A stretch of 64,000 nt of DNA from an archaeon (GCA_030704845.1 JAUYKZ010000023.1:14262-78261), one strand, 5' to 3'. Positions 15,307-64,000 are shown, numbered from the stretch's first letter. A program made the numbers and translations. The notes: a model not told the origin generated them from the letters alone.

Positions 15307-15803
15307 AATCTTCCCAAGAAGCACTTGCTTCAGTTCTTCAATCGTCTGAATATTCTTCGTGGAAGGAAGAACATCCTGGTTCTTACCTTTCACATTTTTT
15401 TTGTGCTCTTTCTTCTGCAATGGAACAGAAAAGTCCTTGGGAAATAGGTTTCTATGATCCTAATGATGGAAAAATAACTATTTTTATTGCTGAGAATGAA
15501 ATCCTGGTTAAACCAGAAGACCAAATTTTTCAAAAAGAAAAACAAGATGTTGAAGAATTACCATTTGATAAAGTGTCAATCTCATTAGATAAAGCAGAGG
15601 ATTTGTTTAAAGAAAATGCGGGTAATTTATTTCCCGAAGAAAGTTGGGGCGACGGATTTATTGTCCTTCAAACCTTACAAGGAAAAAATCTTTGGAATTT
15701 TACATTTATAACAAAATCACTTAAATTCATAAATGCAAAAATAGATGCTTCATCTGGAGAAATAGTTAGCCATGATTTGGTAGAAGTTGTTCAAAGGAAG
15801 TAA
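15276..15803 (+). CDS. hypothetical protein (true start probably the internal Met near 15420)
   Basis: The ORF overlaps the tfs 3' end. Coding-like. Confidence 0.3.
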   Translation: MWSYLEGICVKSSQEALASVLQSSEYSSWKEEHPGSYLSHFFCALSSAMEQKSPWEIGFYDPNDGKITIFIAENEILVKPEDQIFQKEKQDVEELPFDKVSISLDKAEDLFKENAGNLFPEESWGDGFIVLQTLQGKNLWNFTFITKSLKFINAKIDASSGEIVSHDLVEVVQRK

Positions 15804-16110
15804 ATCTGCGATTAATTCTTGATAGTTTTAATCTTAGGTTAATTAATTTGTGTGTAGTGTAAAATAACAACAACAATGGGTAGTAACCCGTTATGTTTTT
15901 TCAATAGTGGTATCGGGTTTGAGAATATAGTTTCAACTCTAGTAGTCTTTATTAAGGTGGTAGCTTCTCTATTAAAACGATAGATGTTAGGAAAAAGGGG
16001 TGGTCGATGTCACATGGCAGCAATATCTTATAAAGCAATGATGGGTAGTAAAAAACTTGATTCTTTTTTTAGTCGAGAACAGAAAGAAGAAGAGGAATGA
16101 ATTTCATTCC

Positions 16111-16860
16111 TTATTTTTTCTTCAAATTAATTCTATAAAATTCTCTTGCTTGTTCTTTAGATGATTCTAAACTTTTTCCTGCATTTAAATAGGTGACATT
16201 AACTCCCGCATTCTCAAATATTTTTCTGAATTCTTCACTTTCATAATGAGCTTTAATTCTTAATTGAAATTCTAAATTTTCAAATATACAATTGTCATCT
16301 TTTTCTCGTTCAGAAACTCTTCTTATAGCTTCTTCTGCATCTTTAATTGTTGGAACAATTAAAAAGTCCATTGGATGTTTCATGCAAAAAGTATTTCCTG
16401 GAATTGCTAAAATTTCTTCAACGCTAAATTCTTCTCCTCTATCTAAAGCACTTTGTCGTTGATAAACTATTGTTGTTGAAAGTGATCTGCTTTGAAAAAT
16501 GTTAATTCCATTTTCTAATGCCGGAAGAATTACTCCTTCATATAATATTCTTCTATCAAGGGCATATGCGTCTGCAACTGCTTGAGGGCTGTAATCTCTT
16601 CCATTTCTAGAAATTAATTCTTCTCTAATATATCTTCCAACCCCACTAAAAGTTGGCTCAGAAGTGATTACGATATCAAAATTACCAATAATCTCTTTAT
16701 GGTCTGGATGATGATTATTCTTCTCCCAGAATTCATGGACGTCAAATACTCTTTTTCCTTCCTTTTTTGCTTCTTGAATAAATTCGTTAAGAAAAACACC
16801 TTTGCCAACGCCATCTAATCCATCAATAACTACAAACTTGCCTCTTTCCATTCTATCCAC
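16111..16860 (-). CDS. tmk: thymidylate kinase-like dNMP kinase
   Basis: GKFVVIDGLDGVGKG P-loop in the dTMP kinase arrangement and a DRR segment. Sits next to folA and thyA. Confidence 0.5.
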   Translation of the reverse strand: MDRMERGKFVVIDGLDGVGKGVFLNEFIQEAKKEGKRVFDVHEFWEKNNHHPDHKEIIGNFDIVITSEPTFSGVGRYIREELISRNGRDYSPQAVADAYALDRRILYEGVILPALENGINIFQSRSLSTTIVYQRQSALDRGEEFSVEEILAIPGNTFCMKHPMDFLIVPTIKDAEEAIRRVSEREKDDNCIFENLEFQLRIKAHYESEEFRKIFENAGVNVTYLNAGKSLESSKEQAREFYRINLKKK

Positions 16861-16870
16861 CCTTTTTTTA

Positions 16871-17410
16871 TTATCTTCTAGTTTTAGTATAAGTCACAAA
16901 TGAATACTCTTTCTCGATAGGAATCCCATCTTTATTAAATTCTGTTTCTCCATAATCTACTGGTACCCCTTGCCATTCATGGTGATTAATCGGTGGGAAG
17001 AAAGCATCACCATCAGTTACAACTCTTTTAACATGAGTAATCTCTAATTTTGTTGCTAACGGCATTGTATCTCTATAAACAGTTTCTCCTCCAATGATGT
17101 ATACTAATGGCGGATTTTCTCCGATTAAAGGTGCTTTATCGGCTTCTGCAAGAGCTTCTTCAAGACTATGCGCGATGTAAATGCCATTATCTCTAAAATC
17201 TGGATTGCTTGTCATAACAATATTATGTCGGCCTTGTAATGGTCGAAATTTATTTGGAATTGATTCATAGGTATTTCGTCCCATGATTACTGGATGTCCT
17301 AAAGTTAATTCTTTAAATCGAGTTAAATCTTCAGGAATTCTCCACGGCATTTGACCATTTATTCCAATTACATTATTAATTGACACTGCTGCAATTAGTA
17401 CTAAGTCCAT
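16871..17410 (-). CDS. folA: dihydrofolate reductase
   Basis: MDLVLIAAVSINNVIGINGQMPWRIPEDLTRFKELTLGHPVIMGRNTYESIP aligns closely with the canonical DHFR N-terminus. Confidence 0.8.
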   Translation of the reverse strand: MDLVLIAAVSINNVIGINGQMPWRIPEDLTRFKELTLGHPVIMGRNTYESIPNKFRPLQGRHNIVMTSNPDFRDNGIYIAHSLEEALAEADKAPLIGENPPLVYIIGGETVYRDTMPLATKLEITHVKRVVTDGDAFFPPINHHEWQGVPVDYGETEFNKDGIPIEKEYSFVTYTKTRR

Positions 17411-17425
17411 TTTATTCCTCTAAAT

Positions 17426-18292
17426 CTATACCGCTATTTTAAAATCTATCTTTAGTTGTGGATTGTAACCAACAAGTTTTGAATCAGTAAATTCCCAATT
17501 AAATATTGAACTAAAACTTTCAGTATCTATCCTTGGTAGTTCCCCGGGTTTTCTACTTAATTGTTCCTTAGCACCTTCAAAATGATTTTCATAAATATGA
17601 ACATCAGCTAAGAATCCAGTTAAAATTCCTTCTTCTAATCCGGATTCCTTTGCTAAGAGATGAAGTAGTAATCCATAACTTGCAATATTGAATGGTAAGC
17701 CAAGCATTGTATCAACAGATCGTTGATTCCATAGAAGATTTACTTTACCTTCCGAGGTCGTAACTTGAAATCCATAATGACACGGGGGTAAGGCCATCTG
17801 AGATAATTGTGCTGGATTCCAGGAATTAACAATCATTCTCCTATCATTTGGATTATTTTTAAGTGTTTCAACTAAAGTTGCAAGTTGATCTATTCCTTGT
17901 CCAGAATAATCTGCATCTGGTCCTTTATATTCTGCACCAAAATGGCGCCATTGAAATCCATATATCGGTCCAAGATCATTCTCTTGCATCATTCTATTTT
18001 TTGATTCCTCGTCATGAGCATAAGGAACTTTTTTAGGATTACACCATTCATCCCAAATCTTATTTTTTCTCTCTTGTAACCATCTTTTATCGGTAAGACC
18101 TTTTATAAAAAATTCTAATTCGGATTTAACAAGTTGAAATGGAACTCTTTTTGTTGTAAGAATTGGAAAACCTTTCTTCATATCATGTTTAAAGATTCTA
18201 CCGGAAACTAAATAAGTGTCAATGCCCGTTCTATTTTCTTTTCTTTCACCAGTTTTTAGAATGTCTTTTACCAGATTTAAGTATTGTTCCAT
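17426..18292 (-). CDS. thyA: thymidylate synthase (ThyA type)
   Basis: MEQYLNLVKDIL start, an ALPPCHYGFQV active-site cysteine motif, and ThyA-like similarity throughout. The ORF in the track extends 16 codons further upstream. Confidence 0.8.
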   Translation of the reverse strand: MEQYLNLVKDILKTGERKENRTGIDTYLVSGRIFKHDMKKGFPILTTKRVPFQLVKSELEFFIKGLTDKRWLQERKNKIWDEWCNPKKVPYAHDEESKNRMMQENDLGPIYGFQWRHFGAEYKGPDADYSGQGIDQLATLVETLKNNPNDRRMIVNSWNPAQLSQMALPPCHYGFQVTTSEGKVNLLWNQRSVDTMLGLPFNIASYGLLLHLLAKESGLEEGILTGFLADVHIYENHFEGAKEQLSRKPGELPRIDTESFSSIFNWEFTDSKLVGYNPQLKIDFKIAV

Positions 18293-18377
18293 AAAATCCC
18301 CCCTTCTACAAAACGATAATATTCCATTCTTTAAATACATTTATCATCTCAATACTCACCTTTGAAAGACAATAATC

Positions 18378-18388
18378 CATTTAAATAA
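18378..18388 (+). promoter_or_regulatory. putative archaeal TATA box (catttaaataa) about 26 nt upstream of the ATG at 18409
   Basis: TATA-like element at the spacing expected for a leaderless archaeal transcript. The same spacing recurs at 31760 and 54611. Confidence 0.35.
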
Positions 18389-18408
18389 CTCCTCTCGGAA
18401 GTAGAAAC

Positions 18409-19434
18409 ATGATTATTGGTGTTATAGGTAAATATGCTTCGGGGAAGGATTGTGTAGCTAAAACTTTAGAGAATCAAGGATTTATTCATTATTCTTTATC
18501 AGATGAAATTAGAGCGGAAGCTAAGCAAAGGAAACTTAAAATTACAAGAGACGTTTTAATTAATCTTGGCAATGAACTAAGAGAAAAATTCGGTCCATCT
18601 ATTCTTTCTGAAAGAATTCGTTCAAGAATTCACGGGAACAGAAATTATGTTCTTTCTTCTATCAGAAATGTTGAAGAGGTAAATGCTTTACTAGATCTTC
18701 CAGAATTTGTTTTAATTAGAGTTGAAGCAGATGCAAAGAAAAGATTCGAATGGCTTAATAAAAGAGCTAGGGAAGAAGATCCTAAGACTTTCAAAGAATT
18801 CCAAGAGAAAGAGAAATTGGAATCTAGTTCTGATCCAAACAAACAACAGTTGCACAAAGTAATGAAACTTGCAAAAATAGTTATTAAAAATGAAGGAAGT
18901 TTGGAAGATTTAAATAATAAAACTTTACGTATGTTTAATAATCTTAAACGGAAATATCATAAACGGCCCAGTTGGGACGATTATTTCATGGGAATCGTTG
19001 AAGCAGTTTCTACTAGAGCAACATGTGACCGCGGGAGAACAGCGGTTGTTTTAGTTAAAGATAAAATAATAATTGCAACTGGTTATGTTGGTTCACCAAT
19101 GGGTATGCCACATTGTGATGATGTTGGTCATCAGATGAAGAAAATAATTCATGAAGATGAAAGAATTTCTCAACATTGTGTGAGAACAAATCATGGGGAA
19201 GTTAATGCTATTTCTCTTGCTGCAAGAAATGGTGTTTCAACGGAAGGAGCAACGTTATATTGTAAACTTGAACCTTGTTACACCTGCGCTAAGATGCTTA
19301 TTAATTCGGGGATTATAAGAGTTGTCTGTCAGAAATTATATCATGCAGGACAAGATTCGCGAGAATTGTTTAAGATGGCAAAAATCCCGGTGACCGTTCT
19401 TCAAGATACTGTTGAAGGATATTCTAATCAATGA
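18409..19434 (+). CDS. bifunctional P-loop nucleotide kinase-like domain fused to dCMP deaminase
   Basis: N-terminus has GVIGKYASGKD, a Walker A in a small NMP-kinase/dephospho-CoA-kinase-like fold. C-terminus has HGEVNAI and LEPCYTCAKMLINSGI, the zinc-binding motifs of deoxycytidylate deaminase. Confidence 0.6.
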   Translation: MIIGVIGKYASGKDCVAKTLENQGFIHYSLSDEIRAEAKQRKLKITRDVLINLGNELREKFGPSILSERIRSRIHGNRNYVLSSIRNVEEVNALLDLPEFVLIRVEADAKKRFEWLNKRAREEDPKTFKEFQEKEKLESSSDPNKQQLHKVMKLAKIVIKNEGSLEDLNNKTLRMFNNLKRKYHKRPSWDDYFMGIVEAVSTRATCDRGRTAVVLVKDKIIIATGYVGSPMGMPHCDDVGHQMKKIIHEDERISQHCVRTNHGEVNAISLAARNGVSTEGATLYCKLEPCYTCAKMLINSGIIRVVCQKLYHAGQDSRELFKMAKIPVTVLQDTVEGYSNQ

Positions 19435-19663
19435 TTTTTAATATTTTATCTCTACTTTTCATTCCACTTTTGATTTCAACAGATAAACCAAATTCTTTCT
19501 TAAGAAATTTAATTAATTCCTGATTTGCTTTATTCTTATCCGGGATAGATTTTAGATATATTCTTACTTTATCACCTTCAATAACAATTTCATTCCTTCC
19601 AGAGTTTGGAATGACTCTTACTGAGAGTAAATTATTCTTAAAAAGAGAGTCTAGGTTTATCAT
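19424..19663 (-). CDS. DUF167/YggU family protein
   Basis: LSVRVIPNSGRNEI...LKSIPDKNKANQELIKFL pattern of the YggU family. Confidence 0.45.
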   Translation of the reverse strand: MINLDSLFKNNLLSVRVIPNSGRNEIVIEGDKVRIYLKSIPDKNKANQELIKFLKKEFGLSVEIKSGMKSRDKILKIID

Positions 19664-19961
19664 TTTGTAATATGAAATGGTACATTATGCAAGGTTCCCT
19701 AGATTCATTTAATCCTTCATAACGATCTCGAAGTATATATCCGAAGGGATAGTGTACATTATTTAGAATGTATCTTCTTGCTTCATCACTTAACGGTCCT
19801 TCTGACTTTCTTTCACAGATTCTTAAGCGGTAATCTTGATGGTTAACTTCTTCAGTGATATCAAGAATGCTCTGTTTAAGAGTTATAGTCTTATTTCTTA
19901 GCTGGTAAGCACCACAACCAGCAATAATCGAAGCAAGAGCTAATACTGCCACTTTATTCAT
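19638..19961 (-). CDS. hypothetical lipoprotein
   Basis: N-terminal signal with AGCG lipobox-like cysteine. Confidence 0.3.
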   Translation of the reverse strand: MNKVAVLALASIIAGCGAYQLRNKTITLKQSILDITEEVNHQDYRLRICERKSEGPLSDEARRYILNNVHYPFGYILRDRYEGLNESREPCIMYHFILQNDKPRLSF

Positions 19962-20054
19962 AGCTGTTTTTGAGCACTTCTTCTATATAAATTTATATCC
20001 TTTTTTAGAAGAGGAATCTTTAAAAAGAATGAAGGCTGGTAAGTCTCGGGGGGT

Positions 20055-20699
20055 ATGGGAGAGATAAAAATAACTCTAGAGACCTTGTACGATATTCTTA
20101 GGAATGAGAAGAAGCGTGAAGATCTTCAGGAACTGGAAACGACATTCTTTATAGATGTAATCGCATACCTTAACGAAAAGAAAAGTCTCCTTACTAGTAA
20201 ACAAGGAAGCGATGATTTATTTGCGGCTGGTGAAAGAGATAAACTAGAGTATGAATTAAGAAGCATTCAAAAAATCTTGAAAGAGATTTATGAAAAAAGG
20301 GAAAAGAAAATTATCGAGATTGCTTTGAATAGAAGTAGGACGGGGTCAGATATAATTGATACTAGTTCAATGTTGCTTGAAGAGAAAACGTTTTATGACC
20401 GGGTATTAAAAATTCTTGATCTTCATCGTCAAGGCGTGTTATTACAATTATTCAGAGGAAAATTTCCGGATATCACTGAAGAAGAACATCGAAGAGTTAG
20501 TCCTCTGTCAGAGATTGAATCTGTTTCTTCGCCATTAACATCGGACGGTTTAGCTCGGATTAGATTTCTTCGTGCTGTACCAAGTTTTGTTTGGAAGGAT
20601 ATGAAGGTTTACGGACCTTTTGAAATCGGCGAGATTACCGAGATTTTTCCAGAAGTAGCCGATTTGTTGGTAAGGAAGGGAAGAGCTCAGAAGTTGTGA
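20055..20699 (+). CDS. hypothetical protein (weak resemblance to a GINS subunit helical domain)
   Basis: LQELETTFFIDVIAYLNEK is loosely like the LQPLPxDFY...Y helix of GINS. Speculative. Confidence 0.25.
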   Translation: MGEIKITLETLYDILRNEKKREDLQELETTFFIDVIAYLNEKKSLLTSKQGSDDLFAAGERDKLEYELRSIQKILKEIYEKREKKIIEIALNRSRTGSDIIDTSSMLLEEKTFYDRVLKILDLHRQGVLLQLFRGKFPDITEEEHRRVSPLSEIESVSSPLTSDGLARIRFLRAVPSFVWKDMKVYGPFEIGEITEIFPEVADLLVRKGRAQKL

Positions 20700-41462: not shown

Positions 41463-41534
41463 TAGGATGCCAAAAATGTCTTCCTAAATGGTTGTATTTT
41501 AAACACAGCGACATTTTTGTGCATAAAAAAGAGT

Positions 41535-41668
41535 GTCGGGGAAGGGATTCGAACCCTCGAACCCACTAAGAGACAGGATATCTTCCAAGGAAGCCAATTA
41601 TCAATAATTGGTGCCTCATCCATGTGGACTTAAGTCCTGCGCATTTGACCGGACTTTGCTACCCCGAC
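41535..41668 (-). tRNA. tRNA-Leu (UAA) with intron of about 49 nt at position 37/38
   Basis: Minus strand reads gtcggggtagcaaag...gcaggacttaag[intron tccacatggatgaggcaccaattattgataattggcttccttggaagat]atcctg-long variable arm-gagggttcgaatcccttccccgac. The acceptor and T arm are canonical. After intron removal the anticodon stem is cagga/tcctg with loop cTTAAga. The intron carries its own ccaattat/ataattgg hairpin. Confidence 0.55.
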
Positions 41669-44553: not shown

Positions 44554-46617
44554 CTACATCCCGTCGCCGATTGTAATCACTTGGTCTTCATAACTTCCAT
44601 CCCGGTAAATGGTTAACCCTTTACATTTCATCTTCCAGGCTAGCATGTAAGCATCTTCGACATCTTTAATTGCAGCCGTTCTAGGAAAATTAACCGTCTT
44701 TGAAATTGAATTGTCAACATGTTTCTGTAATGTTGCTTGCATTTTGATGTGCCATTCAGGTTTTATATCTTGAGCTGTGACAAAAACATCTCTTACATCT
44801 TTAGGAACTTCTTTGATATGTTGTACTCCACCCATTAAAGACAATTTTCTCATTAGTTCTGGGGAATAAAATCCTCTATCTTTTGCAACTTTTTCAAAGA
44901 CTGAATTGACTGTAATTAATTCATTACTGCTTAGCACAGTTCTTTGAAATGCTAAAGCAAATGCAGGTTCACAACCAGAAGTTGTATTTGCAAGAATACT
45001 TCTGGTACCTGTTGGCGATAAAGATATGCAACTCATATTTCTCATTTTTCTTCCTGCTTTTTCGTGATCTGAACCTTCCCAAGCTGGGCAAACACCTCTT
45101 TCTTCAGCAAGTTGAGAAGATTTCTCATAAACAGCATCTTTAAAGAACGACATCAATTTTTCAGCGATTGCTAATCCTTCTTCTGAATCATATTTAATAC
45201 CTAGCATGAATAACATGTCGGCAAATCCCATGATTCCAAGTCCAAACTTACGCGTTTTTTTGGTTTGTTCTTCAATTTTAGCTTTCGGATAACTATTCAT
45301 GTCAATCACATTGTCAAGAAAATGAACTGATATCTGGATAACTTCTCTTAATTTTTCCCAATCTAAATCTTTCCCAATAACAAATTTTGCAACGTCAATA
45401 CTACCCAAAGCACATCCTTCATTAGGTAATAATGGTGCTTCGCCACATTGATTTGTTGTTTCAATTTCTCCGAGATGTCTAGCAGGATGTTTTCGGTTAA
45501 TTTCATCGATAAAAATTAATCCTGGATCACCAGTTTTCCAAGCATTTTGAGTAATAACCGCGAAAACGTCTTTCGCTCTTAACTTCCCAACATATTTACT
45601 AGTGCGTGGATTTTTTAAGAAATATTCTCGATCTTCTTCAACTGATTTCATAAATCGGTCAGTTACAGCAACTGAAATGTTAAAATTCTTTAATGACCTT
45701 TTATCTCTTTTTGAATCAATGAATCTTAATATGTCTGGATGGTCAACTCTTAGCACAGCCATGTTTGCTCCAGGTCTTACTCCTCCTTGTTTGATAACGT
45801 CAAGAGCCGCATCATAAACTTTCAAAAATGCTAACGGACCGGAGGCAACCCCTAGATGGTGTTGTACCGGATCACCTTTAGATCTTAATCTAGAAAAAGC
45901 AAATCCAGTTCCGCTTCCTCGTTGATGAATGATTGCCGCATCACGAAGAGTTCCAAAAATTGAACGCATGTTATCTTCAATTGGAAGAACGAAACATGCA
46001 CTTAACTGCTGACTGTTTGTTCCAGCATTCATTAATGTTGGCGAGTTAGGTAAAAAATAAAGTTTGGAAAGAATCATATAAAATTGTTGTGATATTTCTG
46101 CAATCTGTTCTGAATTTTTCCGGTAATACTTATCCGCTTTTGCAATATTATTAGCAACTCTTTGGAGCATGCCTTCTGGATTTTCTTTAAGATTTCCAAG
46201 TTGATCTTTCATTAAATATCTTCTATCTAATATTTTTAATGCTTCATTGGTAAATGAATGATCTTCTTCACCGACATGTTGTTCGCCTAGAATTAATGCT
46301 CTTCTTGCTCTGGTTTCACTTCTGGTATGCCGATGTAGAATGTATGCTTTTGCAGTCTTAGCATGTCCCCTATCAATTAATGTTTTTTCAACTAGGTCTT
46401 GTACGTTCTCAACAGTCGGTTTAGAAAGTTGAAATTTTTCACCAATAATCCTTTCGATATCCCTCGCTAAAGCAAGGGCCAATACTTTATCATCACCACC
46501 TACTGCTTGAGCTGCTTTGAAGATTGCATCAGCAATTTTGTTTACGTTAAACGAGACAATTCTTCCATCACGTTTAGTTATTTCTTTTATTTGGAAACTT
46601 TTGTTATCTTCTGTCAT
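44554..46617 (-). CDS. ribonucleotide reductase catalytic subunit (class II-like) with N-terminal ATP-cone
   Basis: ATP-cone (IKEITKRDGRIVSFNVNKIADAI). It has LPNSPTLMNAGT, SACFVLPIEDN radical-Cys and NQCGEAPL motifs. No beta subunit gene is nearby, and an adenosyltransferase sits adjacent. Confidence 0.75.
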   Translation of the reverse strand: MTEDNKSFQIKEITKRDGRIVSFNVNKIADAIFKAAQAVGGDDKVLALALARDIERIIGEKFQLSKPTVENVQDLVEKTLIDRGHAKTAKAYILHRHTRSETRARRALILGEQHVGEEDHSFTNEALKILDRRYLMKDQLGNLKENPEGMLQRVANNIAKADKYYRKNSEQIAEISQQFYMILSKLYFLPNSPTLMNAGTNSQQLSACFVLPIEDNMRSIFGTLRDAAIIHQRGSGTGFAFSRLRSKGDPVQHHLGVASGPLAFLKVYDAALDVIKQGGVRPGANMAVLRVDHPDILRFIDSKRDKRSLKNFNISVAVTDRFMKSVEEDREYFLKNPRTSKYVGKLRAKDVFAVITQNAWKTGDPGLIFIDEINRKHPARHLGEIETTNQCGEAPLLPNEGCALGSIDVAKFVIGKDLDWEKLREVIQISVHFLDNVIDMNSYPKAKIEEQTKKTRKFGLGIMGFADMLFMLGIKYDSEEGLAIAEKLMSFFKDAVYEKSSQLAEERGVCPAWEGSDHEKAGRKMRNMSCISLSPTGTRSILANTTSGCEPAFALAFQRTVLSSNELITVNSVFEKVAKDRGFYSPELMRKLSLMGGVQHIKEVPKDVRDVFVTAQDIKPEWHIKMQATLQKHVDNSISKTVNFPRTAAIKDVEDAYMLAWKMKCKGLTIYRDGSYEDQVITIGDGM

Positions 46618-46622
46618 CAGAT

Positions 46623-49600
46623 TTAACTACACCCAGTTGTTTCTCCGCAAACTTCACATAACATGCATGTGCCATTTTGTCTTAATTGAGTTGCTCCGCA
46701 ACCACTACATTTCATGGTTGTATTTTTTGTTGAAACTATTCTGCTTGAGATTTCTTTTTTTACAGGTTCATTCGTTGATTTGATCTTAATACCCATGTCT
46801 TCAAAGTCACAAAGGAACTCTTGAAGTTCTGAGATTACAGGATGTCCCGGTACATTTAAACTTTCCCTTGCAATCTTAACTGGATCGGCTCCTTCTCTTA
46901 GACTGAAATTAACTCCATTAACAATGGTTTGCATCATTACTTGTTGTATTGGTGAGACCCAATCCATTGAGATTTCAATTCCCCCAATTATATTATTTTT
47001 AACTTCAGCAGTAAATATACATTTTTTACCAGCAAGTTTTACAACTTTTTTGTAATATGTTATTGGCGAAACTTCCAAAGGAGTTACAGTTTCTTCCGTT
47101 GATTTAGAGGTAAGTATATTCTTAAGCTGAGAGTTTTCTCCTAAAATCGAATTTAATGGTTGGCTTAATTTGCTTCCATCTCGGTAAAGAGCAACAGCTT
47201 TAATCATCAATTTCCAGGAATCATAGTATGCTTTTTTTATCTGTTCAACGGTCCATTCTTGAGGCATGTTAATTGTCTTAGAGATTGCACCAGAAACAAA
47301 TGGTTGAGTTGCCGCAAGCATATTTAGATGTCCATAAGGGTGGATATATCTTTTTCCGCCTTTACCACATTTATTAGCACAATCAAAGACTGGTAGATGT
47401 TCTTCTTTAAGATGCGGAGCACCTTCTAACATCATTGTTCCACAGATGTGTTTATTTGCTGCATCAATTTCTGTTTCTGTAAATCCAAGGGCAGTAAGGA
47501 AATTTCCTTGTTTTCCATTCATGATTCTATTATAGAAATCTTCTCCTAATGTCCATTGATTAAAGACATAACTAATATCCATGGAGTTTCCTAATTCTTT
47601 CTCTACTTTCATGATTTGCTGTTCACTAAATCCCTTAGCAGTTAAAGAATCAAGGTTAATGTAAGGGCTTCCATCAAGACTACCATTGCCAAGACAATAT
47701 TGAATAATATCTCTTGTTTGTCCTTCAGTATATCCTAATTTACGTAACGATTTTGGAACTGATTGATTAACAATCTTGAAATATCCACCACCAGCTAGTT
47801 TCTTGAATTTAACTAATGCATAATCCGGTTCAACACCGGTAGTATCACAATCCATAACTAAACCAATTGTTCCAGTTGGGGCGAGAACGGTTGTTTGTGC
47901 ATTTCTATATCCGTGATTTTCTCCTAACCGTAGAGCCTTATCCCAAGCGTTATGAGCGGCTTCTAGCAGTTCTTTAGGACAGAGAATTTGATCAAGCGCT
48001 AGTGGTTTGATTGTTAGATCTTCATAATCTTCTTCGGAGGCATTATAAGAAGCTCTTCGATGATTTCTGATTACCTTTAACATGTGTTCTTTGTTATCTT
48101 CATATCTCTCAAATGGTGCAAGGGCCGATGCTAACTCTGCTGAAGTAGCATAAGCATCACCAGTCATGATTGCTGTTAAGGCACCAGAAATTGTTCTTCC
48201 TTTATCACTATCATATGGAATTCCTTGTAACATTAACAATGAACCAACGTTAGCAAATCCTAACCCTAAAGTTCTGTATTCAAAACTTCTCATTGCAATT
48301 TGTTCAGATGGGAAATGGGCCATTAATACAGATAACTCTAATGCGATAGTCCATAATCTGATTGCATGTCGATATCCTTTAATATCAAAAATTCCAGTTT
48401 TATCTTCATAGAACTTTACTAAATTAATTGATGCAAGATTACAAGCAGTATCATCTAAAAAATTATATTCTGCGCAAGGATTACTTCCGTTAATTCTTCC
48501 TCCTTCAGGGCAAGTATGCCATTCATTGATGGTTGAATCATATTGTATTCCTGGATCGGCACTAGCCCATGCACAATAACCAATTTGATCCCACAATTCA
48601 TGTGCGGGGATAGTTTTCATTACACTCCCGTCAGTTCTTGCTTTTAATTCCCATGCTTCTCCATTTTCTAATGCTTCAAAGAATGAATTTGGAATTCTTA
48701 CAGAATTATTACTGTTCTGTCCAGATACTGTAACGTAAGCTTCAGATTCATAATGGGTATCGAATTCTTGAAGTGGTAAAGAATATCCTTGTTTTGCTAA
48801 TTCTAAAGCTCTAATAACATAATTTACCGGAATTTCGTCGTGTGAAGCAGCTTTGATTGCATTCTGTACTCCTAAATCATTTAATGGGTTTTCTTTACCT
48901 TGAGAAAGTTCGATAAGTTTGCCTAATCGTTTTTTTAGAATTTTACTTCCTGCAACCAAATCTGCAACTTTTTCTTCTTCTTTAACTTTCCACCAGATTA
49001 AACTTTCAATTTCGGGATGATCTAAATCTAATGAAATCATTTTGGCAGCTCTTCTAGTAGTTCCGCCAGACTTTATACTTCCGGCAGCGACATCAAATAT
49101 TTTAAGGAAACTCATTAACCCGCTACTTGTTCCTCCACCCGAAAGACGTTCACCTTTTCCACGTAATGCTGAGAAGTTACTTCCGGTCCCGCTACCATAT
49201 TTGAATATTCTTGCTTCTCTGATAAGTAAACTTAGAATTCCGCCATCACGAACTAAATCGTCATTTAATGCTTGAATAAAACAATTGTGTACAACAACCC
49301 CATTCCCCAAAAATTTTCCACTTTCTGTTTGAATGTCATATACATTCTTAATACCAATGCTTTCTATTGACATGATTTGTTCTTCTCTGATAAGTGGAAG
49401 ACATTTTGAACGTTGGACTAGTTTGTTGAGTAGTAGCAATTTATCATGTTTCTCCTCACTAATGAAACCAATTTGTTCGGAATATTGTTCACGAGCACTT
49501 CCATAAGCAATAATCACTTGATTTGTTCCTGCACGATTTTCTCGGCTATCAATATTCTTAGATATTCTTGCATAAATCCCAACAGAATTAAGCAATTGTA

Positions 49601-50987
49601 GCACGCCAAATGATAAATCATCTGAACTGGTCGTTAAGCAGATATCTCCCGAGTGTCTACTTTCATCTACTCTTATTCTAACACACCCATCGGCTTGGAA
49701 AAGGGTTTTAAGGAACTCTCGTTTTTCTTGAGGCGAGGAGTATACTATTTTCTTTGGAACTCGAGCTGTTCTACTTCTACTTTCTAGCAGTTCATATTCC
49801 TCAACAAAAGGATGTATCTTTTTCCCAGCTAGATGAACTCTTTTTCCATTTATATTATCACTTTTGGTATCAAATGTTGTAATCCAATAACTCACATCAT
49901 TACCAAAAACTTCCTTAATATCTTCTATTACTGATTCATGTTCGGAATCATTAATGGTTATTATCTCCATTCTCATTACGTTAGAATAAATTCCAACTGA
50001 GCCATCTCCGACAACCCATCCAGCTAATCTTGCTTTAGCTAAATCTCTACTGAAAACATTTTTTTCTTTAACATCAAGCATTAATGGTTGCTGAAGCCTA
50101 TGTCTTACTTTAACATCCTTAAGTTCCTTCCAAGTGTATTCACCATGCCATTTCTCTGCTGAGAGTACTACATGATCATTAGTTAAATCAATATAATTGC
50201 CATTTTTAAGAAGGACTCTAAATACTTCTTTTCTACCATTATCCTTAGTCGCTAGAATTTTTACAAAATCTTCTCCATCAAATACTTTAATTCCAGCTAA
50301 ATTATTTTCAACAATATCTCCAATATACATTGTGCCTTTTTCAGTATACAATTGTGTGTAATATTCTGCACACGCATGCGGTTGTGATCTAGAATATGCA
50401 TCTTTTGAGAATTCTAATCTCTTTGTGATTGGATCAACATAACTATGTCCTTGAGCAGGTCCAGTAATTCCATATGCCCAATGAAGACCAGTTGTAAACC
50501 ATTGCGGGCTGTTAGGAGCAGCAGATTGATTAATTATCATGTAAATCATTTCATCATAGAATGTTTGTGCATCATCTTCTGTTGCAAAATAATTAAATTT
50601 CTTCCCCCAATTCATCCAACATCCAGCAATTCTGTGAGCAACTTGTTTAATGCTGGTTTCACTGCCAGAAATAACTTTTCCATTTTCATCAAGAAGTAAT
50701 TCTCCATTCTCGTCACGTAAAGGCACTCCCGCTTTCCGGAAATATTTCTGAGCGAGAATATCGGTAGCTACTTGTGACCAGAAATCAGGGACTTCTACGT
50801 CATTCATTTCAAAAACAGTACTTCCATCTGGATTTTTAATAATAGAGGTTCTTCGTTCATAATTGAACATTTCTGCTGGTGGTGTATCTTCTTTAGTATA
50901 ATATCTTGGAATCTTTAATCCTTCTTGTTCAAGCATAATTTCCTCTTCTTCTTCACCCAGATTTGTTTTATTTTTCATTATAGCCAC
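46623..50987 (-). CDS. ribonucleotide reductase (class II-like, about 1085 aa extein) containing one LAGLIDADG intein; C-terminal zinc ribbon
   Basis: Extein motifs are CFIQALNDD radical-Cys, NPCAEYNFL...CNLASINL, and a terminal CSGCG...[13 protein letters not shown]. The intein spans residues 206-568 (about 363 aa). It begins CAEYY, ends VVHN followed by C, and has [11 protein letters not shown] and LFQADGCV endonuclease blocks. Confidence 0.8.
49284..50372 (-). other. intein with LAGLIDADG homing endonuclease inside the RNR gene
   Basis: The Cys1 ... His-Asn/Cys+1 splice junctions sit exactly at the RNR active-site cysteine codon (host context SQPHA|CFIQ). Coordinates were derived by residue counting. 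Confidence 0.7.
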
Positions 50988-58214: not shown

Positions 58215-59108
58215 ATGTTTATAGAAATTAGAAAAAGAGGAAAGAGTAAAAAGTATTATCTTGTTCATTCATATAGAGAAAGTGGTAAAATCAAGAGAAT
58301 TTCTCGTTATCTTGGTTCTAATCTTAACGAGAATAAACTACTAGAATTAGAGAAAAGGGCAGAACAGCATATCTTGGAAGGAATAAAAGAAAGAAGTATT
58401 CTTGAGTTTGAGTTAACTAAAAAAGAGATTGAAGAGTATAAAAAGTATGAGACAGATATTGAAATAAAACATTTACAAACATTAAATTGGAAACGATTTA
58501 CTGAAACTTTTACTTATAACACAAATGCTATAGAGGGTTCAACTGTTGCCCTCTCTGAAGTTAAGGAATTGTTGAGTGGAGAAGAAGAACCTCAAGGTGC
58601 GGACGATATTGAAACTCTTAATGTAGCAAAAGCCGTTGAATATATTCAAAAATCTAAAGAAAAGATAACTTTGAATTTTATTAAGCATCTCCATTTAATT
58701 TGTTTTAAAGGAACTAAGGGGTTTGCGGGTAAGTTGAGAGAAGTAAATGTTGTAATTAGGGATAGTCAAGGAAATGTTGTTCATGAAGGAGCACCAATAA
58801 ATAAAGTAAGGAGTTTGGTTGAAGAGCTTTGTAATTGGTATATTAAACATAAAAATAAATATCCTCCGTTACTTCTTGCTGCCGTCATGCATAATCAGTT
58901 TGAGAAGATACATCCATTTCAAGATGGTAATGGAAGAGTCGGAAGATTATTATTAAATTATGTTTTGTTACAGCACAAATATCCTCCAATTAACGTTCGT
59001 TTACGAGATCGAATTAGGTATTACAAGTGTTTACAAGAATATGATCAAAAGAATGATATCAAGTCTACTTTGAAATTTTTGATTAGTGAATATAAAAAAC
59101 AGTTTTAG
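58215..59108 (+). CDS. fic: Fic/Doc family protein (putative AMPylase)
   Basis: HPFQDGNGRVGRLLLNYVL matches HPFx[DE]GNGRxxR. TAG stop. Confidence 0.75.
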   Translation: MFIEIRKRGKSKKYYLVHSYRESGKIKRISRYLGSNLNENKLLELEKRAEQHILEGIKERSILEFELTKKEIEEYKKYETDIEIKHLQTLNWKRFTETFTYNTNAIEGSTVALSEVKELLSGEEEPQGADDIETLNVAKAVEYIQKSKEKITLNFIKHLHLICFKGTKGFAGKLREVNVVIRDSQGNVVHEGAPINKVRSLVEELCNWYIKHKNKYPPLLLAAVMHNQFEKIHPFQDGNGRVGRLLLNYVLLQHKYPPINVRLRDRIRYYKCLQEYDQKNDIKSTLKFLISEYKKQF

Positions 59109-63135: not shown

Positions 63136-63298
63136 ATTACGGTGATCGATGATTGGTTTTAGTCAGTGTTGGTAGAGTGACAAAGAAATAGTGATTATGT
63201 ACAGTTTGTATCATATAATTCTAACTACAACTTAACCAGTTCACGGCCGATGATCTTCTTCGAGTACTTCGCAACCACGTTGAGCATGGTGCTGTACT

Positions 63299-63943
63299 TC
63301 ATGACGAAGAGTGGCGTGTCCTGCTCGTAACGACCGGGATGTTGAGAAAGCCACTCACGCAGGTACTTCGCGGCTCGGTAGCACGAGGTTCGAGGTACAT
63401 ACCCTGGCCATTACTGAACTCTCCGTACCACCCCGTGTCGTCGTCGAAGAGGTCGGAGAGCATCGAGCTGCCGCAGAGGTAGCGCCTCACCAGCACTTGG
63501 TTCAGGACGTTGGGTGCATCGCCACACACGCAATTGACCCCGCAGTGGCAGTCGGCAGGGCAGGACGCGCATGTTTCTCCGCCTCCGCACGCGCCATCGC
63601 CACAGCGGGGTCGCGGGATGCACGAATTGCCGACGCAGTCTTCGTTGGCGGCACACGTGTTAGGACAGCTTCCTCCGCAGCCGTCTGTCCCGCACTCCTT
63701 GTTAGCGCAGCTCCGGACGCAGCCTACACAGGTTCCGTTCAGGCAGCCATTGACACAGTCCTCGACAACGCGGACGTTCTGGCCACAGACATCGAATTCC
63801 CAGAGGTCACCCACGCCGCAGCGTCGACCCGCAATGTTCGGTGCGCAGTAGCCCGGTTGCCCTGGAGATCCGGTACAGGTGTGATCCTGATGACATTGGT
63901 AGTCCCATTCGCAGGGCGGAGTGCAGCGGCCACCCTGGCACAC
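63299..63943 (-). CDS. cysteine-rich repeat protein (CGDG/CxxC repeats), probably N-terminally incomplete at the window edge; GC-rich gene
   Basis: Repeated C-x-x-C-G-D-G-like units (RCGDGACGGGETCASC, CGTDGCGGSC). GC-rich codon usage unlike the rest of the window. The minus-strand frame is chosen over overlapping plus-strand ORFs because of the regular Cys spacing. Confidence 0.35.
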   Translation of the reverse strand: MCQGGRCTPPCEWDYQCHQDHTCTGSPGQPGYCAPNIAGRRCGVGDLWEFDVCGQNVRVVEDCVNGCLNGTCVGCVRSCANKECGTDGCGGSCPNTCAANEDCVGNSCIPRPRCGDGACGGGETCASCPADCHCGVNCVCGDAPNVLNQVLVRRYLCGSSMLSDLFDDDTGWYGEFSNGQGMYLEPRATEPRSTCVSGFLNIPVVTSRTRHSSS

Positions 63944-64000
63944 CCAACCTGGCCGGCATTCGTTATCGACGTTGCAGAGGGAGCACCAGTCGCCGAGTGG

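Follow-up and report, generated by a model that had tools for sequence, protein, structure and literature searches.

Gene content of the locus

We examined a 64,000-nucleotide stretch of an archaeal contig (GCA_030704845.1, JAUYKZ010000023.1:14262-78261; hereafter, the window), in which a gene encoding a fusion of a P-loop kinase-like domain and a dCMP deaminase domain is encoded next to genes for thymidylate synthesis. The source is most likely a tiny archaeon of the Woesearchaeota type (DPANN). A sequence-only reading of the window had placed four open reading frames (ORFs) between positions 16111 and 19434, and all four were recovered there, each with a strong family match. The fusion gene (18409-19434, plus strand, 341 aa) is divergent from three minus-strand genes. 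These are thyA (17426-18292, 288 aa; PF00303, E = 1e-93), folA, encoding dihydrofolate reductase (DHFR; 16871-17410, 179 aa; PF00186, E = 1.3e-47), and a Tmk-like gene (16111-16860; PF02223, E = 7e-14), the last being 249 aa from a GTG start or 246 aa from Met4, the start chosen by the gene caller on the identical contig L082. Because the intergenic gaps are only 10-15 bp, we regard these three as a thyA-folA-tmk operon with the Tmk-like gene at its 3′ end. As proposed earlier, the four genes make up a functionally coherent set, leading from deoxycytidine nucleotides through dUMP and dTMP to dTDP.

The longest thyA ORF reaches position 18340. The start is most likely Met17, at position 18292, given the NCBI annotation of an identical protein (P0272), a PF00303 match that begins at residue 18, and a Shine–Dalgarno-like GGGGGG run that precedes this ATG on the minus strand. 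With this start, the divergent spacer spans 116 bp (18293-18408) rather than 68 bp. Two TATA-like TTTAAATA boxes, read from the sequence at 18331-18338 and 18380-18387, make the spacer a putative divergent promoter region. The second box lies ~25 nt ahead of the fusion ATG, a distance that suggests a leaderless or short-leader fusion transcript. An Rfam scan of positions 15700-20100 returned no match at E ≤ 1. The GC fraction is uniform across the block and its flanks (0.31-0.36; 0.33 within the block). At its 3′ end, the fusion gene overlaps by 11 bp a convergent YggU/DUF167 gene (19424-19663, minus strand; PF02594, E = 5e-18).

The thyA-folA-tmk genes are in themselves ordinary. ThyA is full length and above curated cutoffs, scoring 313.8 bits on PF00303 and 283.6 bits on TIGR03284, whose cutoff is 108.35. 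DHFR matches PF00186 over its full length (161.9 bits, cutoff 25) and falls below every NCBIfam equivalog or exception cutoff, so it was not assigned to a subtype. The third protein exceeds the PF02223 cutoff (52.4 versus 27 bits) and misses that of TIGR00041 (70.7 versus 83.25 bits). Its P-loop reads GLDGVGKG, ending in GKG rather than GK[S/T], and its top match among solved Tmk structures reaches just E = 4e-6; the "tmk" of the window is best described as a divergent, thymidylate kinase-like gene. Proteins identical to the window ThyA and DHFR (P0391) are encoded on an NCBI contig of 114,882 bp labeled "MAG: archaeon" (MAG, metagenome-assembled genome).

The kinase-deaminase fusion and its family

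A domain search of the fusion ORF recovered both partners anticipated by the sequence-only reading: residues 188-307 match dCMP_cyt_deam_1 (E = 3.6e-20), and residues 1-135 match the P-loop kinase families AAA_17, AAA_18, and DNMK. The N-terminal domain (18409-18954, plus strand; aa 1-182) is nucleoside monophosphate (NMP) kinase-like and carries the Walker A motif G7-KYAS-G12-K13-D14. The C-terminal domain (18961-19434, plus strand; aa 185-341) is a Zn-dependent dCMP deaminase domain. An AlphaFold2 (AF2) model with a predicted local distance difference test score (pLDDT) of 89.9 places a P-loop NMP kinase fold in the N-terminal half, in agreement with Foldseek. The ORF is uninterrupted, which marks the fusion as genuine rather than as two genes joined by a missed stop codon. 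Neither finding that the sequence-only reading had named as counting against it, a missing kinase fold or a split ORF, was thus observed.

Among 272 sequences (270 retrieved homologs and two references), 186 share the N-kinase/C-deaminase order, and their median length is 342 aa. By sequence comparison, the fusion belongs to a large, uncharacterized family of ~340-aa proteins from Woesearchaeota, Micrarchaeota, and several bacterial phyla, whose members are presently labeled "AAA family ATPase" or "dCMP deaminase" in the databases. The nearest homologs come overwhelmingly from Woesearchaeota/Nanoarchaeota MAGs.

Motif conservation was read from hmmalign columns across about 180 fusions. Walker A (GxxxxGK[D/T]), the deaminase HxE and PCxxC motifs, a second Cys/His cluster, and E90 are conserved. 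In the window protein, the Zn motifs are H262-x-E264 and P289-C290-x-x-C293, and the second cluster comprises C206, H235, C236, and C257. Six arginines (R35, R47, R58, R86, R112, and R119) recur in 88-98% of the fusions and in 15/15 stand-alone kinases; the fold would assign them to the NMP site and the LID. Stand-alone homologs of the kinase, 45-53% identical, measure about 180 aa. In canonical dCMP deaminases, the motif for allosteric dCTP/dTTP is G(Y/W)N(A/G) (PMC12088426); the equivalent position of the window protein reads G225-Y-V-G228 and thus lacks the canonical Asn. GYVG is found in 123/185 fusions and GYNG in 43/185. Since GYVG also occurs in 45/69 stand-alone deaminase relatives, loss of the Asn is not linked to the fusion event.

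Classical dCMP deaminases (DCTD/ComEB, EC 3.5.4.12; S. mutans 2hvv/2hvw, T4 1vq2) share the HxE/PCxxC Zn site and the second Cys/His cluster with the window protein, and the location of the fusion gene beside a thymidylate synthase gene is as expected of a dUMP supplier. In contrast to the classical enzymes, which are single-domain protomers of ~20 kDa that form homohexamers, the window protein has two domains, with a 180-aa kinase domain fused to the deaminase and GYVG in place of the allosteric motif. Assignment as the competence protein ComEB was rejected (TIGR02571, 105.9 bits against a cutoff of 219; archaeal context). The kinase half has the five-stranded parallel-sheet fold and Walker A motif of P-loop NMP kinases. 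A Walker A ending in GKD is shared with the UPF0200/AdkA-like kinases (SSO1041, PDB 3lw7/3h0k), detected through NF006226 (PRK08356; E = 1e-22), and with the T4-type dNMP kinase (PDB 1dek, DNMK), detected through phrog_139 (E = 1e-16). However, the domain is 20% identical to 3lw7, scores 80.9 bits against a cutoff of 189 for NF006226, and is matched by no kinase of an isolate phage at the BLAST level. NF006226 is itself named "hypothetical protein," and UPF0200 is a family of uncharacterized proteins.

Relationship to AvcD/DcdV anti-phage deaminases

The fusion architecture had been put forward as possibly undescribed. It is in fact the published (2021-22) kinase plus dCMP deaminase architecture of AvcD/DcdV, and the window fusion has >1,600 homologs in the databases. 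Tal et al. (10.1101/2021.04.26.441389) described a 576-aa defense protein whose N-terminal domain is a kinase and whose C-terminal domain is a Zn deaminase, each of which is required, and applied a family size criterion of >350 aa. The DcdV preprint (Severin/Hsueh et al., 10.1101/2021.03.31.437871) reported PLK+DCD homologs in archaea. The AvcD/DcdV kinase domain is needed for dCTP deamination (10.1101/2021.04.26.441389; 10.1101/2021.03.31.437871; for the system, see also PMC10511110). Our literature search for structural work on AvcD gave nothing past the 2021-23 papers, and we found no paper on such a fusion in DPANN or Woesearchaeota.

The window protein resembles the defense proteins over both of its domains. 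The order is the same, a P-loop kinase-like domain followed by a Zn deaminase with HxE and PCxxC, and the proteins are collinear (hhalign, 99.4% across 321 columns; BLASTP, E = 2e-19 against Vibrio nigripulchritudo WP_022611795). The PADLOC dCTPase model matches residues 1-306 (E = 9.3e-38), the NCBIfam model NF041025 ("anti-phage dCTP deaminase") matches at E = 2.3e-28, and R58, E90, R112, and Q146 of the kinase half are held in common along with the catalytic deaminase residues. Nevertheless, the NF041025 score is 99.2 bits against an equivalog cutoff of 400 bits, whereas WP_022611795, taken as a positive control, scores 503.9 bits. Other members of the compact family score 110-152 bits.

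These scores are accompanied by differences in size and architecture. The window protein has 341 aa (family, ~340 aa), below the >350-aa limit, compared with 505-576 aa for AvcD/DcdV. Alignment against six NCBI-annotated defense proteins revealed four segments that are confined to the latter: an N-terminal extension, a ~20-aa insert in the kinase domain, a 45-50-aa insert in the deaminase domain, and a 75-120-aa C-terminal extension. The AvcD/DcdV P-loop reads GAVGSGIKS or lacks the Lys, whereas the compact fusions have a canonical GxxxxGK[D/T]; the second Cys/His cluster is kept in the compact fusions and lost from AvcD/DcdV.

The genomic settings also differ. The defense family is associated with mobile elements and defense islands and with a sparse distribution that varies among strains, and AvcD/DcdV homologs are found on small plasmids or beside insertion sequence elements. 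The window gene, by contrast, has conserved core-genome neighbors, and its relatives lie in thymidylate operons. In the defense systems, the AvcI/DifV antitoxin RNA is encoded 5′ of the gene; the corresponding spacer here, no longer than 116 bp, also contains the thyA promoter and holds two TATA-like boxes, which leaves no room for an AvcI-type RNA. No Rfam match was obtained in the spacer, although Rfam may not include AvcI and an RNA could be encoded elsewhere. No defense genes were seen around compact fusions in nine annotated neighborhoods. On the basis of these comparisons, we regard the window protein as a full-length homolog of AvcD/DcdV, but as a non-defense relative rather than a member of that family.

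Genomic context across relatives

The neighborhood of the fusion gene is archaeal, with genes for TFS, GINS51, and a Bud32/RIO-type kinase, as well as an intron-bearing tRNA. Both yggU and TFS are close neighbors of the fusion gene, each being encoded at a distance of 6 kb or less in 16/20 Woesearchaeota-clade loci, and the yggU synteny marks a core-genome position. The relative at locus L085, whose fusion is 56% identical, has the same downstream order as the window (yggU, GINS51, methyltransferase, Bud32-type kinase, thioredoxin) and no thyA upstream. The shared downstream order, set beside varying upstream genes, indicates that the fusion gene is the stable element and the upstream slot the variable one.

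In the window and L082, this slot holds tmk-folA-thyA, divergent from the fusion gene; the ThyA of the window belongs to clade A. L083 and L001 carry a clade B thyA beside the fusion gene, with two tmk genes and DHFR nearby. A tmk-thyX-DCD cluster is divergent from the fusion gene in L169, as in the window, and L170 has the order thyX-tmk-fusion-nrdR-RNR (RNR, ribonucleotide reductase), all on one strand. L086 encodes a DCD-family protein and a second kinase beside the fusion. The two halves also occur as separate genes, in loci from Patescibacteria and unbinned metagenome contigs: kinase > deaminase > thyA (L057), deaminase > kinase > tmk (L069), deaminase > thyA > kinase (L072), and tmk > dUTPase/DCD > deaminase > kinase > thyA (L168). 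A thymidylate synthase, either ThyA or ThyX, is encoded within 6 kb in 10/20 Woesearchaeota-clade loci and in 7/9 split-gene loci.

ThyA and ThyX are unrelated thymidylate synthases, and ThyA needs DHFR whereas ThyX does not. The distribution observed is the expected complementary pattern, here in the form of displacement at a fixed position beside the fusion gene: ThyA and DHFR occur together in the window, and DHFR is missing from the vicinity where a relative carries ThyX in this slot.

Several further neighbors of the fusion and split genes were noted. The ThyX (PF02511) homologs in L169 (3970-5676) and L170 (2417-3946) are 509-568 aa long, with a weak Pfam match in L169. The usual length of ThyX is roughly half of this, and these may be duplicated or fused forms. 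The DCD-family proteins beside the fusion gene have DCD_N/DCD/DCD_C domains and are 632 aa (L086:10176-12074) and 383 aa (L169:5682-6833). Two Saccharibacteria/Patescibacteria loci (L064:4489-5991 and L074:843-2384) have tmk on one side and the paired deaminase and kinase genes on the other side of a gene for a 500-aa protein. This protein, in which a partial thymidylate synthase-like domain is joined to a DUF4346 domain of the pterin-binding kind, may be an unusual thymidylate synthase or a dCMP hydroxymethylase-like enzyme.

Origin of the thyA-folA-tmk cluster

The history of the upstream genes is distinct from that of the fusion. Between the window and L083/L001, the fusion proteins are 66-67% identical, compared with 40% for ThyA, 37-41% for DHFR, and 24-27% for Tmk. 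The ThyA sequences fall into two clades about 40% identical to each other, and in the clade of the window, sequences from Woesearchaeota and Patescibacteria are interleaved at 66-73% identity. This identity contrast, along with the presence of ThyX without DHFR in the same slot, indicates that the cluster was displaced. It looks like xenologous displacement in which thyA-folA-tmk was swapped from a pool shared by DPANN and Patescibacteria, a conclusion drawn from matrices of pairwise identity and from the few taxon labels that the matches carried. Given the uniform GC content, the displacement was not recent. The horizontal origin suggested earlier for thyA and folA thus stands insofar as the cluster moved between lineages; the donor pool, however, does not look phage-like but resembles DPANN/Patescibacteria, members of which have ThyA proteins 67-84% identical to that of the window. 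In L083, the locus of a closest relative, an RHH-PIN toxin-antitoxin pair (L083:8292-8929) lies between the thyA and tmk genes of the cluster, a further sign of a recombinationally active slot.

Proposed function

The analysis shows the gene identities, the folds and conserved catalytic motifs, the conserved synteny, the recurrent linkage in operons, and a homology to AvcD that falls short of family membership; we infer that the physiological role is dUMP supply, and likewise infer which reaction the kinase domain carries out. We think it likely that the locus serves housekeeping thymidylate synthesis and that the fusion supplies its dUMP. The deaminase domain would convert deoxycytidine nucleotides to deoxyuridine nucleotides, hence dUMP for ThyA, which would methylate it to dTMP. 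DHFR would recycle the dihydrofolate made by ThyA, and the Tmk-like kinase would phosphorylate dTMP to dTDP. Both transcription units are probably co-regulated through the 116-bp divergent spacer. The linkage to two non-homologous thymidylate synthases, the occurrence of kinase and deaminase in both fused and adjacent form, and the presence of a separate Tmk are strong arguments for a deaminase that provides thymidylate synthase with dUMP and for a kinase at work in that pathway.

Because a separate Tmk co-occurs with the kinase-deaminase, the kinase domain is not simply a Tmk. It is most likely an active phosphotransferase on the same deoxypyrimidine pool. Most economically, its step could be reversible dCMP ↔ dCDP phosphotransfer, although this is a guess that may well be wrong; such a transfer would couple RNR-made dCDP/dCTP to a monophosphate-specific deaminase. 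The window holds two RNR genes, which indicate that deoxynucleotides are made endogenously and provide a source of substrate. One (44554-46617, minus strand) encodes 687 aa with ATP-cone, RNR N-terminal, and barrel domains. The other (46623-50987, minus strand) encodes a 1,454-aa class II protein with a B12-type N-terminal domain, interrupted by a LAGLIDADG intein. The RNR of L170 likewise contains an intein and is encoded directly downstream of the fusion gene.

A number of observations weigh against dUMP supply as the role of the fusion. The characterized full-length homologs are defense toxins that act on dCTP. The analysis covered 64 kb of the genome, and dcd, dut, cmk, and ndk could be encoded outside it. 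With the Asn of the allosteric/substrate motif lost, substrate and regulation may deviate from those of classical dCMP deaminases, and the AF2 model leaves some doubt about how the two domains are oriented relative to each other (predicted template modeling score, 0.59). Fusions of the Micrarchaeota/bacterial clade (about 40% identity) have no thymidylate linkage, and no defense context either; their role may differ, or the genes may simply be unlinked. Finally, the DCD-family proteins beside the fusion genes of L086 and L169 open another possible route to dUMP, and some Woesearchaeota genomes may have two routes from deoxycytidine to deoxyuridine nucleotides.

Two other accounts of the locus as a whole were considered. 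ThyA, DHFR, dCMP deaminase, and dNMP kinase are common in phage gene repertoires, and, in line with the "phage-style," T4-type label given to the gene set earlier, the block could be a recently acquired phage or virus nucleotide cassette. PHROG profiles do match all four proteins, and thyA-folA-tmk has clearly been exchanged between lineages. The searches for the same fusion nonetheless found Woesearchaeota relatives and no phage or viral contig carrying it. In tblastn against 50,697 phage records, the full fusion matched in its deaminase half only (no match covering ≥80%), and the kinase half alone had no BLAST match. Likewise, the 80 best of 473 relatives in a profile-guided IMG/VR scan matched the deaminase half only. 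A plasmid search gave no full-length match to the window fusion. The best isolate-phage ThyA is 45% identical, far from the values for DPANN and Patescibacteria; the block has the GC content of its flanks; the gene order around the fusion is archaeal and conserved; and no integrase or other viral gene lies within 10 kb. The phage origin is not supported by these results, and we consider a recent cassette highly improbable. Somewhat less remote, though still improbable, is that the fusion is an archaeal AvcD/DcdV-type antiviral dCTP deaminase, a toxin that depletes deoxycytidine nucleotides upon infection and lies beside thymidylate genes by chance. The PADLOC and NF041025 matches, the collinearity with a bona fide defense protein, and the archaeal PLK+DCD homologs of the DcdV preprint fit such an identity. 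Against it stand the score far below that of a true member, the length under the family limit, the absence of the four defense-specific segments from a protein that keeps a canonical P-loop and the second Cys/His cluster, the core synteny with no defense genes nearby, the two-promoter spacer, and the recurrence of operons with thyA, thyX, or tmk.

For the kinase-like domain, the main alternative to phosphotransfer, and in our estimate an unlikely one, is a non-catalytic role. The domain might sense dCTP, dTTP, or ATP and so regulate the deaminase in place of the allosteric site lost from classical dCMP deaminases, or it might clamp the phosphate tail of dCTP or dCDP so that the deaminase can use these directly. 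The prevalence of GYVG among the fusions is compatible with a replaced site, yet GYVG is also common among stand-alone deaminases, and GYNG persists in a minority of fusions. AvcD/DcdV provides a precedent: its kinase domain is needed for deamination despite a non-canonical P-loop, which implies that a kinase-like domain can serve a deaminase without classical kinase chemistry, and a sensor or clamp may apply there as well. The compact fusions, however, keep the canonical Walker A Lys and the NMP-site/LID-like arginines, as in active NMP kinases, and the kinase also occurs as a separate gene in the operons. An active kinase working alongside the deaminase remains our preferred assignment.

Other features of the window

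Between yggU and GINS51 lies a 107-aa ORF (19638-19961, minus strand) with an N-terminal signal peptide/lipobox-like MNKVAVLALASIIAGCG and no Pfam match; it is absent at the equivalent position of L085. The intron-bearing tRNA gene (41534-41668, minus strand) carries 52 inserted nucleotides near the anticodon loop, and its variable arm is long. It was detected by Rfam (45.7 bits), was missed by ARAGORN, and has the form usual for archaeal tRNAs with introns. The plus-strand gene at 58215-59108 encodes a member of the Fic/DOC family (PF02661, E = 7e-20).

From ~63235 to 64000, the GC fraction jumps from about 0.33 to 0.56-0.63, and a very Cys-rich minus-strand ORF runs off the window end. The stretch has no Pfam, PHROG, or Rfam match, and an rRNA gene was rejected as its identity since Rfam gave no match and the Cys-rich ORF is present instead. 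Recent acquisition of foreign DNA could account for it, as could a chimeric join in the assembly. Near the fusion gene of L085, a 1,259-aa MutS (L085:523-4302) contains an intein (Intein_splicing and LAGLIDADG_3); inteins appear common in the replication and nucleotide-metabolism genes of this lineage.

Implications

The interest of this locus lies in a compact variant, with a canonical P-loop and a housekeeping context, of proteins otherwise known only as antiviral toxins. As a possibility that we consider less likely than not, the kinase-deaminase pair, fused or adjacent, may represent an unrecognized, widespread step of thymidylate synthesis in the ultra-small DPANN archaea and Patescibacteria as well as the evolutionary source of the AvcD/DcdV toxins. 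A dedicated P-loop kinase would interconvert dCDP/dCTP and dCMP and pass its product to a deaminase free of classical allosteric control. AvcD/DcdV would then have arisen from a housekeeping enzyme through insertions, degeneration of the P-loop, and capture of an RNA antitoxin.

The locus shows ThyA plus DHFR and ThyX modules being swapped at a fixed genomic position, and the fusion beside them is, for DPANN and Patescibacteria, a conserved, so far unnamed, and probable component of dTTP synthesis. For the AvcD/DcdV kinase-like domain, both published groups showed only that it is required. The compact family, which is non-toxic by context, has a canonical P-loop, and exists in fused and separate forms within thymidylate operons, offers a simpler system for the role of this domain and a specific candidate for the housekeeping protein from which the defense system descended.

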